A stretch of 64,000 bases of DNA. Source: an uncultured Gammaproteobacteria bacterium (lineage in GTDB: Bacteria > Patescibacteriota > Microgenomatia > Levybacterales > UBA12049). Below, piece after piece: positions 30,370 through 44,052 of the stretch. The notes under the pieces are model-generated. The model did no database searches and was not told the DNA's origin. It saw only the letters and a list, made by a program, of their open reading frames with translations. Every line of letters begins with the position of its first letter. The stretch's first letter is position 1. A program made the position numbers and the translations under genes. The stretch spans positions 10,755 to 74,754 of the forward strand of contig CAZLSZ010000001.1 of NCBI GenBank assembly GCA_964562445.1. Direction: 5' to 3'.

Positions 30370-31017
30370 ATGAAAGAACGAAAAATAGTACAGAGTGCTC
30401 TTGCAGTAGGGCTTACATTGGGAGGTCCGACATTACCGGGGCTGTCTCTAGAGGCAGATCCTCCTACTCCTCATGTCATGCAAAGTACGGACAAAAAATA
30501 TCCTACAAAAGAAGAGGTAGAAGCCCAAATCGCCGAGAGAAATAAGAATGAATTATCGGGACTAGGAGTTGTAAGTTTGCTGAGTGCATGCGTAGTCGGT
30601 TCAGTAATCTACGCCAGACGAAAGTATAATAGATATGAAAGAGAAAAATCATTGTATCTTACCACAGCAGAACCTGTCTATGAGAAAGATGCTGCAATTT
30701 TTTCGCAAAGTCTCTATCGAAATGCCATTCCCAAGAAAGATGTAAAAAGATATGGGAAAGATCTTATGGAACGAGGTGGCAATCCCAAACATGAATTTTC
30801 AACAACCAATAAAGAAGGATTTATCAACGTCGCCAAGTCTGCGGGCATTCCGAATCGAAAAATATATGCAACTGTGTTGAATTATGATACGCTTTTGGAA
30901 GAGAAACCCAATCCCGAATCCGGTACAGTGAAAGCGCTTATTATCCAAGCATTCAATAAAAAAGATCAGACACGCTACGAAACCAAAATAGGGAAGAGAT
31001 TTTATAGAGGAAATTAA
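30370..31017 (+). CDS. hypothetical exported/membrane protein (215 aa; signal peptide plus one TM)
   Basis: ALAVGLTLGGPTLPGLSLEA signal-like. TM VVSLLSACVVGSVIYA then RRKYNRY. Same architecture as the 29656 gene. Confidence 0.55.
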   Translation: MKERKIVQSALAVGLTLGGPTLPGLSLEADPPTPHVMQSTDKKYPTKEEVEAQIAERNKNELSGLGVVSLLSACVVGSVIYARRKYNRYEREKSLYLTTAEPVYEKDAAIFSQSLYRNAIPKKDVKRYGKDLMERGGNPKHEFSTTNKEGFINVAKSAGIPNRKIYATVLNYDTLLEEKPNPESGTVKALIIQAFNKKDQTRYETKIGKRFYRGN

Positions 31018-32171
31018 TTTTTCTTGTTTTGCGCGATAGTAACAGCTTGCATTACCACAGTTCCAAGCGCGATAAGGAAGATAATGCCTGAAATAAGCCA
31101 GCCGAATACAGGAATGAGCGAGATGAGATAGATAACAACCGGTCCGATTATCACTGCTTTCCAATCAAATGTATATTGCTTTTTCTTATCATTCCGTTTG
31201 GTATACCATTCCATTATCCACCATCCGACAAATAGTTTGGCCAATATCCCCGCCAAAATAAGCACCAATCCGTAGAAGAGGAATGCTGCGATACCCAGCA
31301 TAAGAAGTATCAGCATGAGTATTGCTGCGATAGGAAAGAGGATGAGGAATGCAAACCCGATAACGCCATTTTTTACCGGATGCTCTTTCATCTGTCTGAA
31401 TATATCTACCGCGAATCGTCTGAAGAAATACAGGACGAGTAACCCGAGCAGAATATCAACTATGAGCATGTAGAGAGCACCAGATGTAAGAAAACCAGCC
31501 GCAGTTTTATTGTCATCCCCGTCTTCTTTTTGCGGTGTATAAATTGTTTGACCGTTTACTTTGGCGCTGGGGTCAAGTGATGCTTTATTGTCAGAGGTAT
31601 ATTTCAAATCGCCATTAATGACGGCGCGTGAGCCCAATGAGAGTTGTCCTACATATCCTTCTACTCCTTTACCGACAGTATTATTAACAGTTACTTGCCC
31701 TCCTGAGATAAGTACTTTGCCACCGACAGGCGCGTCAAGTTTGAGGGTCCCGCCTGCGAAAAGTACATCTCCGCCTATCTTTGCGTTTGGTGTCACGACG
31801 ACAGTTCCGCCGGTAACGACCAGATCATTTACGATATCACTATCTACGGTGATGTTTCCCCCTGCTACTCTGAGTGAGTTGCCAATTTTGTTTTTGATAG
31901 TGACATTGCCGCCTCCTACCATGACGCTCTGTCCCACAGGACTGTCGATATCGACTTGTCCCGCACCGACGATAGCATCGCTTTGAACGGGAGCGCTGAG
32001 TGATACGGTATCACCGAAAAGATAGATGTTTTTTATGTCAGCAGCATCAGAACTGACGACAATTTGTTCACCGGTGCGTATGTCTGCGGCGGAGGCGTGG
32101 GGAACAGAGACAATAAAAGGAAGGAGAAGGAGGGAAAATCCGAATATGATTCGTTGAATCAGCTTCATATG
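31014..32171 (-). CDS. beta-helical repeat (DUF4097/bactofilin-like) domain protein with signal peptide and C-terminal multi-TM domain
   Basis: Start chosen at ATG 32171 (MKLIQRIIFGFSLLLLPFIVSVPHASA signal peptide). Repeats GGNVTIKNKIGNSLRVAGGNITVDSDIV...GGTVVV...GGTLKL...GGKVLISGGQVTV. Five C-terminal TM helices. Confidence 0.6.
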   Translation of the reverse strand, partial: HMKLIQRIIFGFSLLLLPFIVSVPHASAADIRTGEQIVVSSDAADIKNIYLFGDTVSLSAPVQSDAIVGAGQVDIDSPVGQSVMVGGGNVTIKNKIGNSLRVAGGNITVDSDIVNDLVVTGGTVVVTPNAKIGGDVLFAGGTLKLDAPVGGKVLISGGQVTVNNTVGKGVEGYVGQLSLGSRAVINGDLKYTSDNKASLDPSAKVNGQTIYTPQKEDGDDNKTAAGFLTSGALYMLIVDILLGLLVLYFFRRFAVDIFRQMKEHPVKNGVIGFAFLILFPIAAILMLILLMLGIAAFLFYGLVLILAGILAKLFVGWWIMEWYTKRNDKKKQYTFDWKAVIIGPVVIYLISLIPVFGWLISGIIFLIALGTVVMQAVTIAQNKKN

Positions 32172-32217
32172 CGCAGTGTAGCATAAAATAGAGCAAGTTT
32201 CTAGAGGGTATTGTCTC

Positions 32218-32332
32218 GTCATTCTGGCTCTGTCCAGAATCGATTCTGGAGCCTGCCTGCCGGCAGGCAGGTTCTCACTTCGTTCGTCCCCAGAATGACA
32301 AGAGAGAGATGCTTAAACGAGTTCAGCATGAC
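32218..32332. repeat. nested palindromic intergenic repeat (gtcattctgg..ccagaatgaca inverted repeat enclosing cctgcctgccggcaggcagg; plus gtcatgctgaactcgt in reverse)
   Basis: Outer inverted repeat 32218-27 / 32290-32300, inner 10-bp palindrome at 32252-71, third motif at 32321-32. Near-identical outer element at 37134-37196. Confidence 0.6.
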
Positions 32333-32905: not shown

Positions 32906-33931
32906 ATGTGGAAAAAAAGTTTATTTATCAGAAATATACAATCGGATAGTTATCTGGAGAATTTTCTTATTTCAGCTGTTGTCAGCGTATTTTTAATCCG
33001 TATCTTCCTAGCAATTACGGACTATCCTATTTTGGGGGCAGGTAATTTGCATATCGCGCATATGTTGTGGGGGGGATTTTTTATGATGGCTGCACTTATC
33101 ACGCTTTTCTCGTTTCTCAGTCAGCGCGCTGCTGCCGTAGCATCTGTGCTGGGTGGGATCGGGTTCGGGGCATTTATTGATGAATTAGGTAAATTCATTA
33201 CGGCAGATAATAATTATTTTTTCCAACCCACTATAGCGCTGATATATATCATATTTGTTTTTATTTTTCTTATTACACGGTTTATTCCACGGTATCATGA
33301 ATTCTCGCAGCGGGAATATCTGGTCAATGCGATTGAAATGATCAAAGAATCTGCGATTGATGACTTTGATGCTGATGAGCGCCGCCGCGCTGAAGAGTAT
33401 TTACGTCAGTGCGATCAGCGTAATGAGATGGTAAAGGCTCTTCAGAAAATGCTGAAAAATAGCGCTATTGCGCCGAGTACTCGCCCCGGGCATTTTACGC
33501 GTCTGCGGCGTAAGCTACGGAGATTATATTATCGTGTCGCGGAATCAGATAGAATCCTTACGGCAATTACCGCCTATCTTGCCGCGTCAACCGCGTGGAC
33601 TTTTTTTAATTCCGTTTTATATTTCTCTCAGCGCGCGTACATGCATTATAGCGATATCGGACAATTATATTCCTCCATGCTGGCAGGATCATTTGTCGTA
33701 ATCGGTCTTTTTGCTCTTAAATTTTCGAGATTTGAAGCGTATCGATATTTCCGCTTCGCGATGCTCACAACTATTCTACTGACAGAATTTTTTTCTCTCA
33801 TGAATCCGGTATGGTATGAAATTTTTACTTTGGGAGCAAATGTTTTTGTTCTTTTGGTTATTAACTACGCGATGATACGAGAACAAAAGAAAGTAAAAAA
33901 CACCAGAGAAGGAGTTGTTGCAAAAAAATAG
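32906..33931 (+). CDS. hypothetical polytopic membrane protein (341 aa)
   Basis: At least six hydrophobic helices. No catalytic motif recognised. Confidence 0.55.
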   Translation: MWKKSLFIRNIQSDSYLENFLISAVVSVFLIRIFLAITDYPILGAGNLHIAHMLWGGFFMMAALITLFSFLSQRAAAVASVLGGIGFGAFIDELGKFITADNNYFFQPTIALIYIIFVFIFLITRFIPRYHEFSQREYLVNAIEMIKESAIDDFDADERRRAEEYLRQCDQRNEMVKALQKMLKNSAIAPSTRPGHFTRLRRKLRRLYYRVAESDRILTAITAYLAASTAWTFFNSVLYFSQRAYMHYSDIGQLYSSMLAGSFVVIGLFALKFSRFEAYRYFRFAMLTTILLTEFFSLMNPVWYEIFTLGANVFVLLVINYAMIREQKKVKNTREGVVAKK

Positions 33932-33954
33932 TAATTATGTTTAAATAATGCTGT

Positions 33955-34132
33955 ATTACGAGTGTCCCGCTTTGCGGGACCGGCAACCCTTCGGCAAGCT
34001 CAGGGTAGACCATTCAATATATTCAAGGTTAATCCTTAAGGACTTCTGCCGTGTCGGGTGCCTCTCTCCGGAAAAATGGAGAAATACGGCCATCGGGCAA
34101 ACAGCATAATCCCTTTGGTAAGGGATTTTTTT
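33955..34132 (+). promoter_or_regulatory. structured 5' leader of metK with intrinsic terminator sequestering the SD (riboswitch candidate, possibly SAM-responsive)
   Basis: GC-rich hairpin gtcccgc-ttt-gcgggac (33964-80). ggcaacc and ggtgcc motifs reminiscent of S-box elements. Terminator aatccctt-tggt-aagggatt plus T6 (34109-34132) ends 1 nt before the ATG and contains the only SD-like AAGGGA. Confidence 0.5.
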
Positions 34133-35245
34133 ATGATAAAAAAATTATTTACATCAGAATCAGTCTGCGCTGGGCATCCCGACAAAATTTGTGATCAAAT
34201 CAGTGATGCGTTGGTGGATGCAGTAATCGCACAGGATCCGCATGCACATACAGGTATTGAAACAGTGGCAGGTGCAAACCAAGTAAGTCTTTTCGGGGAA
34301 ATAAAGTCGAGCGCGTCAGTAGACTACGAAGCAATTGTGCGCAGTACTATTACCAAACTCGGCTACACGGTTGACGCGTGGGGTTTCAGTGATAAGTCTT
34401 CTTTTACCAATTTCATTCATCAGCAGTCTCCTGAAATCGCAATGGGTGTAGATCAGGATGGTGCTGGGGATCAGGGGATGATGTTCGGGTATGCCTGTGA
34501 TGAGTCACCTGAATTAATGCCGATGCCGATTATGCTTGCCCACAGTTTGTCACGCGCTATTGATAATGCACGAGCCGCAAAGAAGCTTACGTGGCTGCGT
34601 CCTGACGGGAAAGCACAGGTCACTGTCCGGTATGATAAAGGAAAAGTGGTTGGGATAGAGAAGCTGGTTGCGGCAGTAGCGCATGATGAGAAAATATCTG
34701 CTGAGGAAGTCCGTGCGGAAGTAATTGCCAAAATATTTATTCCTGTTTTAACAAAGTATGGCATAGCGCTTCCTGCAGATAAAGATATTACGGTTAACGG
34801 TACAGGATTATGGCACATTCCGGGGCCACAGTCTGACGCAGGATTGACGGGGAGAAAAATTGTGGTGGATACCTATGGTGGCTATGCACGCGTGGGGGGT
34901 GGGTGTTTTAGCGGGAAGGATCCGAGTAAGGTTGATCGAAGCGGAGCGTATGCTGCGCGATATATTGCAAAAAATATTGTCGCGGCTGGCCTTGCTAAAC
35001 AGTGCGAAGTAGGTCTTGCATATGTAATCGGGCAGCCCAAGCCGCTGATGAAGACTATCGAGACATTCGGGACCGCTACTGTCAGTGAAAAAGCGCTTGA
35101 GGATTTTCAGGAAAAGCTTATTGATACGTCAGTGAAGGGGATTATTGAATCGCTTGATCTGCTTCGTCCGATATATCTTCAGACAGCCGCGTACGGTCAT
35201 TTCGGCAAAGAACAATTGCCGTGGGAAAAAATAGCCTCAGTATAA
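34133..35245 (+). CDS. metK: S-adenosylmethionine synthetase
   Basis: Start at ATG 34133 (MIKKLFTSESVCAGHPDKICDQISDA). GAGDQGMMFGYA, GGGCFSGKDPSKVDRSGAYAARY. The longer track ORF (34058) would include the terminator. Confidence 0.93.
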   Translation: MIKKLFTSESVCAGHPDKICDQISDALVDAVIAQDPHAHTGIETVAGANQVSLFGEIKSSASVDYEAIVRSTITKLGYTVDAWGFSDKSSFTNFIHQQSPEIAMGVDQDGAGDQGMMFGYACDESPELMPMPIMLAHSLSRAIDNARAAKKLTWLRPDGKAQVTVRYDKGKVVGIEKLVAAVAHDEKISAEEVRAEVIAKIFIPVLTKYGIALPADKDITVNGTGLWHIPGPQSDAGLTGRKIVVDTYGGYARVGGGCFSGKDPSKVDRSGAYAARYIAKNIVAAGLAKQCEVGLAYVIGQPKPLMKTIETFGTATVSEKALEDFQEKLIDTSVKGIIESLDLLRPIYLQTAAYGHFGKEQLPWEKIASV

Positions 35246-43906: not shown

Positions 43907-43981
43907 TTGGTACTTGCATTACCATAGACCGGATGCGATAATAGATTTATATCTAAATAAAATAGATAGAATAGTTTAGTG

Positions 43982-44052
43982 TCAGGATGCCATGAATCGA
44001 ACATGGACTACCGCACCCCCAGCGCGGTGTACTACCACTATACTACACCCTG
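43982..44052 (-). tRNA. tRNA-Pro (anticodon GGG), 71 nt, no encoded CCA
   Basis: Hand-folded minus strand: acceptor CAGGGTG/CATCCTG, D arm GTAT-AGTGGTA-GTAC, anticodon stem CCGCG/TGCGG with loop CTGGGGG (U33, GGG, G37), T arm CCATG-TTCGATT-CATGG, discriminator A. Confidence 0.8.

Follow-up and report, generated by a model that had tools for sequence, protein, structure and literature searches.

The leader of metK in the 64-kb window (the whole stretch of DNA analysed here, with positions counted from its first letter) is very probably an OFF riboswitch that responds to S-adenosylmethionine (SAM) and belongs to the known SAM-I/IV class; metK encodes SAM synthetase, a common target of SAM riboswitches. 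The leader is a divergent additional member of this class and not a class of its own: it is homologous to leaders that pass the Rfam threshold for SAM-I/IV, has the architecture of the class and carries its invariant core. An earlier note on this DNA had suggested a SAM riboswitch variant related to the S-box, with the Shine-Dalgarno (SD) sequence inside its terminator, and this is borne out by a SAM-I/IV-class aptamer and by an expression platform conserved in relatives; where the same note offered 'variant or distinct class' as alternatives, the choice falls on the variant, since homologs pass the SAM-I/IV model RF01725, one of those that the note had listed for trial, and yield a model that detects the element in the window. 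SAM-I/IV is the Rfam family RF01725 ('SAM-I-IV-variant') described by Weinberg et al. 2010 (PMC2864571). In this class the paired region P2 is unsplit, the pseudoknot PK-1 is missing, P4 is present, and P5 and a second pseudoknot, PK-2, follow P1 (PMC6890682; PMC2864571 with its Additional file 1); contacts identical to those of SAM-I are kept (PMC5393176).

Relatives of the leader are found through MetK. In a one-genome-per-species set of GTDB the closest MetK proteins are 61% identical and come from metagenome-assembled genomes labelled Patescibacteria and Saccharibacteria; many homologs that are 73-91% identical, in some cases assigned by their labels to Saccharimonadales or Levyibacteriota, are present in a larger protein collection, and the contigs that encode twelve of them were compared. 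A pattern scan of metagenomes (GGAGARATRYGGYCN{3,6}GGGCAAA) gave 29 matches, of which four are true aptamers (L095, L106, L113 and L115, the last being the same as L083) and the others chance matches inside genes. On direct comparison the blocks of the window recur in these leaders, whose stems differ by evident compensatory changes.

Scanned with Rfam 15, the window gives no match to the SAM clan, either at the gathering threshold or, for stretches of 321 and 165 nt, at E<=10, and low-threshold scans of the leader returned noise only (ctRNA, snoRNA, and M-box at 11 bits). This is the outcome that the earlier note had listed as counting against its proposal; that it is nevertheless a false negative follows from the recovery of the element by a model made from only Rfam-passing homologs. 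Against gathering scores of 41.1 bits for RF01725 and 44.4 bits for RF00162 (SAM-I), six of the 13 homologous leaders reach the former (L113, 53.0; L125, 45.7; L106, 45.6; L090, 45.5; L085, 43.6; L083, 41.7 bits) and four fall below it (L084, 37.4; L088, 34.7; L122, 32.5; L082, 30.5 bits). The best match of L081 is to SAM-IV (RF00634; 22.7 bits, E 2-5, insignificant), that of L095 is to SAM-I (RF00162; 31.7 bits, sub-threshold), and L001, like the window, has none in the SAM clan.

Two covariance models, both built with the window excluded, close this gap. Model R1, from a gapless seed of nine orthologs with trimmed hairpin tips, finds 33953-34102 at full length with 52.6 bits (E 1.2e-10) and no second copy in the 64 kb; it scores the 14 family members (window included, and mid-range) at 38-66 bits and Firmicute SAM-I leaders at 24-28 bits. 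Model R2, an independent check from only the six Rfam-passing leaders, re-aligned untrimmed, finds the same interval at full length with 57.0 bits (E 1.6e-10) as its sole match in the 64 kb. In both models 62 consecutive nt of P3 count as an insertion, to which the Rfam miss is attributed: long P3 interiors are found in the two leaders that Rfam misses completely (68 nt in the window, 40 nt in L001), and four of the five members with a P3 interior above 30 nt are sub-threshold or unmatched, although the relation is not strict (L084, with 43 nt, scores 37.4 bits). Read piece by piece, the window does fit the Rfam consensus, namely P1 gCAUc/gAUGc, the P1-P2 joining region J1/2 AAGA plus G, a plain P2, gcCAACC...GGUGgc, an optional P4, and P5 with its tail.

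Two alignments underlie the anatomy of the aptamer: a MAFFT alignment of the raw leaders (A1), in which the cores are good and P2, P3 and P5 are out of register, and, replacing it for pair counts, an alignment of 14 sequences, the window plus 13 leaders, re-aligned to the model from the trimmed seed (A4). Together with the minimum free energy (MFE) fold they give the following elements.

33953..34102, + strand: SAM-I/IV-type aptamer, P1-P2-P3-P4-P1'-P5-AAAC, a full-length match to models R1 and R2
33953..33957, + strand: 5' strand of P1, GUAUU, pairing with AAUAC at 34083-34087 (A4, fold)
33958..33961, + strand: J1/2, ACGA, with G33960 and A33961 invariant in A1
33962..33981, + strand: P2, with the pair G33962-C33981, bulged U33963, a 7-bp stem 33964-70/33974-80 and the loop UUU (fold)
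33982..34062, + strand: P3 core, GGCAACC(C) at 33982-89 with (G)GGUGCC at 34056-62, enclosing an extension (A1, A4)
33990..34055, + strand: predicted P3 extension, helices 33992-96/34047-51, 33997-34000/34040-44, 34002-06/34032-36 and 34008-11/34027-30, with a 15-nt AU-rich loop (MFE fold)
34063..34082, + strand: J3/4, UCU, and the P4 hairpin, CUCC 34066-69/GGAG 34078-81 (A4, fold)
34083..34087, + strand: 3' strand of P1, AAUAC (A4, fold)
34088..34102, + strand: linker G34088; P5, GCC 34089-91, loop AUCG and GGC 34096-98; A-rich tail AAAC (RF01725 consensus, A4)

In A4, 99.7% of the 331 cells form standard pairs, and 18 of the 24 pairs change on both sides; none of 500 shuffles reaches any of five measures, and sliding the partners by 1-3 columns leaves 38-53% pairing. 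The same helices, with covariation, are found in 13 other leaders. RNAalifold applied to A4 returns the same five helices. The MFE of the window leader folded alone is exactly P1-P5 plus the terminator, and the 209-nt leader, at -70.5 kcal/mol, compares with -52.6 +/- 4.2 for its shuffles (z-score -4.25; 0/200 as good). Never varying in A4 are the A-U/U-A pairs of P1 and, in the P3 core, GGC/GCC and CC/GG. Invariant in 14/14 members, and also in env87, the SAM-I/IV RNA whose crystal structure was reportedly solved by Trausch et al. in 2014 as PDB 4L81, are these P1 pairs, the GA of J1/2, GCAACC and GGUGC (15/15 sequences in A1, env87 among them) and the linker G; these positions and pairs we take to be those that form the SAM pocket in the SAM-I structures of the Batey laboratory.

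Within P1, the inner A-U and U-A pairs (columns 3 and 4) are the ones invariant in 14/14, and the remaining three covary. The J1/2 sequence ACGA recurs in the crystallised env87 (sequence: PMC5393176). In the window P2 is without an internal loop or kink-turn (K-turn), and all six modelled pairs are compensatory; this is the GC-rich hairpin at 33964-80 that the earlier note had described. It has a 7-bp stem and a UUU loop, to which the further closing pair G33962-C33981 is added. The blocks GGCAACC (33982-33988) and GGUGCC (34057-34062), likewise named there, are conserved, and the innermost modelled pair of P3 covaries between C-G and G-C. In P4, where 4/4 modelled pairs are compensatory, the fold allows extension by U34065-A34082 and G34070-U34077. 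In P5, 3/3 pairs covary, G34088 before it is invariant in A1, and hairpin and tail together fit the RF01725 consensus G-Gccc-aaaa-gggC-AAaaaA as displayed in the homolog alignments. Outside these elements, AUGCUGU at 33948-33954 is perfectly complementary to ACAGCAU at 34100-34106 and makes a 7-bp clamp over P1 and P5 in the MFE of a longer fragment; a P1 extension or clamp helix was ruled out, as it is not kept in L081 and lies mostly 5' of the predicted transcript start.

The four stacked helices of the predicted extension continue P3, and the whole of P3 folds with -26.5 kcal/mol. Its interior measures 68 nt in the window versus 31 nt in L081, the closest relative (MetK 91% identical), and is shorter in most others; across the 14 members it ranges from 9 to 68 nt, being multi-helical in the window, L001, L122 and L084. 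Judged from these sequences, the length of P3 is plastic in the group, and the wide spacing between GCAACC and GGUGCC is a lineage-specific extension of P3. The earlier note had correctly seen that this spacing is unlike that of SAM-I; it is not a feature of a class, because L081 has a far shorter P3. In the original SAM-I/IV seed alignment, too, P4 is optional and the lengths of P4 and P3 vary (PMC2864571). Moreover, SAM binding is retained in a SAM-I aptamer engineered to have a longer P3 (PMC5393176, Puzzle 4), so that the extension need not impair function.

Some sequence relations inside the extension are worth recording. A block RGCUCAGGG-loop-CCCU is common to the window (33997-34036), L001 (~2775-2795) and L122 (~1071-1090); its carriers have distant MetKs (that of L001 is 61% identical) and it is missing from L081 (91%), and it reflects either repeated loss or a recurrent structural module. 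The stretch AAUCCUU (34031-34037) is a near copy of the 5' arm of the terminator, AAUCCCUU, and complementary to the SD arm AGGGAUU; an origin of the insert as a duplicate of the terminator was ruled out, the resemblance being no better than in shuffles. Nine nt in P3 of L081, CUCGCCAAA, are complementary to the loop and 3' arm of the terminator, UUUGGUGAG, also without significance against shuffles.

The aptamer lies between a putative promoter and a platform that directly adjoins metK.

33918..33946, + strand: putative promoter, inferred, with -35 TTGCAA at 33918-23, a 17-nt spacer and the TG-extended -10 TGtTTAAAT at 33938-46
34089..34119, + strand: predicted antiterminator, G34089-A34092 and G34095-97 with C34111-13 and U34116-U34119 (MFE of the nascent RNA)
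34108..34132, + strand: predicted intrinsic terminator, AAUCCCUU at 34108-34115, loop UGGU, AAGGGAUU at 34120-34127 and a U-run to 34132 (fold, consensus scan)
34120..34125, + strand: SD-like AAGGGA, part of the 3' arm of the terminator, 7 nt 5' of the ATG (sequence)
34133..35245, + strand: metK, S-adenosylmethionine synthetase, the regulated gene (Pfam domains, homolog lengths)

The predicted terminator, also picked up by a consensus scan, has 8 bp including three G-C pairs, a 4-nt loop and 7 U, and folds with -9.3 kcal/mol. The earlier note had recognised the hairpin and its U-run and undercounted both: the stem has 8 bp and not seven (34108-15/34120-27), the run seven T and not six (34126-34132, five of them beyond the stem), and instead of ending 1 nt before the ATG it abuts ATG 34133 directly. 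Its remark that the only SD lies within the 3' arm stands, AAGGGA being the sole purine-rich SD-like block in 34099-34132. The same hairpin and U-run adjoin the ATG in L081, L085 and L088, with 4-6 additional nt in L082 and L083, and a purine-rich 3' arm of the terminator is found at the same place in L081, L082, L083, L085, L088 and L122.

When the RNA is cut just before the 3' arm of the terminator, the MFE structure is aptamer plus antiterminator in the window and in 5/5 close orthologs, the antiterminator beating the P5 state by 3.2, 3.2, 9.7, 5.1, 6.4 and 8.3 kcal/mol, respectively; the complete leader folds as aptamer, P5 and terminator in five of these six. The two strands of the antiterminator co-vary in length and sequence between orthologs (CCAGAAGGG/CCCUUUUGG, CAAAAAGGG/CCCUUUUUG, CUAAAGGG/CCCUUUAG, ACCGGAAGG/CCUUUCGGU), with 3, 4 or 5 A facing 3, 4 or 5 U, U-A in place of A-U, and G-C in place of A-U; this comparison was made by eye and not by pair counts, since indels put the alignment of the expression platform (A5) out of register. 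In L090 and L125, GAGAGG in the P4 loop pairs against CCUCUC of the terminator; an antiterminator formed with the 3' strand of P1 or with P4 was sought for the window lineage, and none is present there.

These considerations suggest the following course of events. Transcription would start at about 33953, and the nascent P5 (34089-98) would compete with the antiterminator, which takes up both arms of P5 together with 34111-19 in the 5' arm and loop of the terminator. Without SAM, the antiterminator would be the more stable nascent fold, no terminator would form, and the polymerase would read through into metK, leaving the SD AAGGGA free. With SAM, the folded aptamer would hold P1 and the adjoining P5, and 34108-15, thus freed, would pair with 34120-27; transcription would end at the start codon, within the U-run, and in RNAs that are nevertheless completed the same hairpin would bury the SD.

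Several points weigh against this picture, in addition to the missing Rfam match. The alignment from which covariation was counted, A4, is itself fitted to the structure of the model. No part of the antiterminator falls within the 3' strand of P1; for coupling to SAM, P5 must therefore belong to the ligand-stabilised fold, as in the structures of SAM-I/IV and SAM-IV, and for the leader this coupling rests on an assumed stabilisation by tertiary contacts or stacking. In the window and L081 the antiterminator, interrupted by a 2x2 internal loop, is moreover weak, at -7.1 kcal/mol against -13.2 for P5 plus terminator, so that on these predicted energies the switch might leak or remain largely off. 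Finally, PK-2, the pairing of the P3 loop with the 3' tail that the SAM-I/IV structures show and that can be made out by eye for several sequences of the original seed alignment, was sought by a duplex search of the P3 interior against the 30 nt of tail after P5, which has low power for short AU-rich pairings and gave z = -0.4 for the window and -1.75 to +1.7 over the 14 members, none significant; as a control, ACGGAC/GUCCGU of env87 was recovered (z = -2.1). PK-2 may be absent, or too short and AU-rich for detection. As for PK-1, by inspection the loop of P2, of 3 nt and not conserved (UUU, ACA, UUCG, UCA and others among the members), is not complementary to J3/4.

The behaviour of PK-2 is also what gives weight to a different classification, unlikely in our view and yet deserving serious thought, in which the leader, together with other metK leaders of Patescibacteria type, represents a separate, pseudoknot-free offshoot of the SAM-I clan that has the four-way junction and P5 and neither PK-1 nor PK-2. 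P5 would then be the switching helix, a ligand-controlled anti-antiterminator acting in place of P1, and P3 would be free to grow. Complementarity between P3 and the tail does not exceed that of shuffles in the 14 members, while the env87 control was found; the P3 interior, varying from 9 to 68 nt and multi-helical in four members, fits poorly with a fixed contact between loop and tail; the antiterminator loop and the terminator occupy the tail 3' of P5; and the Rfam scores are marginal, with about half of the 14 members under the gathering score. The duplex search would, however, let 4-5 AU-rich pairs escape, six members do pass the RF01725 threshold, the P5 hairpin and its CAAAA tail fit the consensus of that family, and variation in the lengths of P4 and P3 is already a property of the original seed alignment. 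Were the offshoot real, it would be the simplest natural scaffold for the SAM-I pocket and would show an expression platform taking over the peripheral domain of its aptamer. A quite improbable variant of the proposed mechanism concerns the platform and not the aptamer: the hairpin at 34108-34127 would mainly or only sequester the SD, as translational control with little real termination. It accords with the SD being the 3' arm and the U-run entering the start codon, with the same output being expected from terminated and from translation-blocked transcripts, and with the GC-rich leaders L095, L106 and L113, which have an SD-sequestering hairpin (UUUCUCUG/CGGAGAAA in L113) and no U-run terminator. 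Yet the hairpin, with its 8-bp stem and the 7 U after it, is built like a textbook intrinsic terminator, stem and U-run are kept in L081, L082, L083, L085, L088, L122, L090 and L125, and in L090 and L125 the ATG of metK lies ~70 nt further on, where the hairpin cannot act on the SD.

That the leader is a decayed, non-sensing one, its aptamer inactivated by the P3 insertion and a constitutive terminator or attenuator left behind, is very unlikely: all invariant core positions and the five helices are intact, in the fold P3 runs on without a break into the insertion, the engineered SAM-I aptamer with extended P3 retains binding, and a constitutive terminator before the essential metK would be costly. 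These observations stand against the large size of the insertion, an MFE of the full leader that corresponds to the terminated form with a weak antiterminator, and the complete loss of the leader in some relatives (L089, L120). Hardly worth entertaining is a classical SAM-I riboswitch (S-box, RF00162) with a degenerated P2. The core blocks are indeed those of SAM-I, other metK leaders of Patescibacteria type hold true SAM-I (L002, 49.8 bits) and L095 scores best against RF00162, if sub-threshold; but P2 is unbranched in 14/14 members, without a K-turn loop or a conserved loop for PK-1, a conserved and covarying P5 with an A-rich tail follows P1, for which SAM-I has no counterpart, and RF00162 finds no match in the window. 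The assignment to SAM-I/IV is thus the one we retain.

metK itself (34133-35245, + strand) encodes 370 amino acids with all three S-AdoMet synthetase domains (Pfam PF00438, PF02772, PF02773); its homologs likewise have 370 residues and begin at the equivalent of ATG 34133. A start at GTG-34058 (395 amino acids) was ruled out, since homologs have ~370 residues and start at the ATG, and so was a leader peptide from the open reading frame (ORF) 33948-34109 (53 amino acids), which begins 5' of the predicted transcript start and whose ATG is missing in L081. That start, at ~33953, the first base of P1, is inferred from the putative promoter, and boxes of the types TTGnnA and TGnTTTAAT have a constant distance to P1 in nearly all 14 leaders. 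The gene order Gmad2, an ORF of ~340 amino acids without Pfam match, leader and metK is kept in several relatives. In the window the ORF directly 5' of the leader (32906-33931, + strand, 341 amino acids) has no Pfam match and is syntenic with metK in most relatives; the predicted -35 box sits within its 3' end (stop at 33929-31). A neighbouring ORF of 402 amino acids (31014-32222, - strand) has no Pfam match either, and its counterparts in L081 and L083 carry DUF8173. The sole match at Rfam gathering threshold in the 64-kb window is a tRNA-Pro (anticodon GGG) at 43981-44052 on the - strand.

Among metK leaders of Patescibacteria-type genomes three states occur: SAM-I/IV-type, classical SAM-I (L002:2806-2916, 49.8 bits; by eye also L123, ~1060-1200, and L124) and no leader (L089, L120, L121). 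The SAM-I leaders, too, end in a terminator with its U-run against the ATG (L123: GAAAGG-U7-ATG), and the terminator-U-run-at-ATG platform looks like a habit of the lineage that is independent of the class of aptamer. The GC-rich metagenome members that have an SD-sequestering hairpin and lack a U-run terminator lie at L095:768-879(-), L106:3109-3213(-) and L113:9775-9878. In L084, also without a U-run terminator, the hairpin UCCCGAUUUAAUCGGGA of P5 repeats the leader's own P2 hairpin exactly over 17 nt (1855-1871, 1953-1969), and GGGAAAA/UUUUCCC can pair as an alternative to P5. Between the riboswitch terminator and the ATG of metK, three members have 55-150 nt of strongly structured RNA (L090:1445-1500, L125:1145-1200, L001:2875-3000), with hairpins like AUGCUUCGAC...GUCGAAGCAU; the tail of L001 reaches -55 kcal/mol.

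For annotation, the leader shows how a riboswitch with an intact core can escape Rfam 15, a miss attributed to the insertion in P3, a stem of variable length. Since about half of the 14 related leaders fall under the RF01725 threshold, the number of SAM-I/IV riboswitches in Patescibacteria genomes is probably underestimated. Under the proposed mechanism, an organism whose genome, to judge from its relatives, is reduced would still control its SAM synthetase by RNA-based feedback, and would do so with a compact platform in which one hairpin stops both transcription and translation. The group as a whole provides natural variants of SAM-I/IV with very different lengths of P3 and no obvious PK-2, which makes it useful for studying the roles of peripheral elements in ligand binding. 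The known picture of SAM riboswitches is unchanged; mildly unusual are the lack of a detectable PK-2 and the proposed use of P5 as anti-antiterminator.

Compared with the known classes, the element is closest to SAM-I/IV. With this class it shares the A-U/U-A pairs of P1, the J1/2 motif (ACGA/AAGA plus G), GCAACC and GGUGC, as well as an unbranched P2, P4, P5 directly after P1 and an A-rich tail. It differs in being unmatched by the Rfam model, in its multi-helix extension of P3, in a PK-2 that the low-power search left undetected, in that the sequence after P5 is that of the antiterminator loop and terminator, and in its host, of Patescibacteria type by the labels of its relatives, the original set having come mostly from marine and soil sources.

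The element is neither SAM-I proper nor SAM-IV: the former is excluded because there is no K-turn or PK-1 and because it has P5, the latter because of P4 and an unbranched P2. With SAM-I (RF00162) it has in common the blocks of the ligand pocket, the four-way junction of P1-P4, the metK target and, as proposed here, the OFF logic by way of a terminator; by contrast, it lacks the K-turn and internal loop of P2 and the pseudoknot between the P2 loop and J3/4, has P5 in addition, and would use P5 for the antiterminator instead of the 3' side of P1 or P4. SAM-IV (RF00634), whose P2 is split (P2a/P2b) with PK-1 and which is without P4 (PMC6890682), resembles it in the SAM-I-like core and in a P5-like hairpin 3' of P1. 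The unbranched P2 and the present, covarying P4 of the window set the two apart. With regard to the platform, riboswitches are known in which one hairpin serves both as terminator and as SD sequester, in dual control; the layout in the window is mechanistically nothing new beside these, its terminator having the SD as 3' arm and its U-run abutting the start codon, so that a single helix would block both steps.

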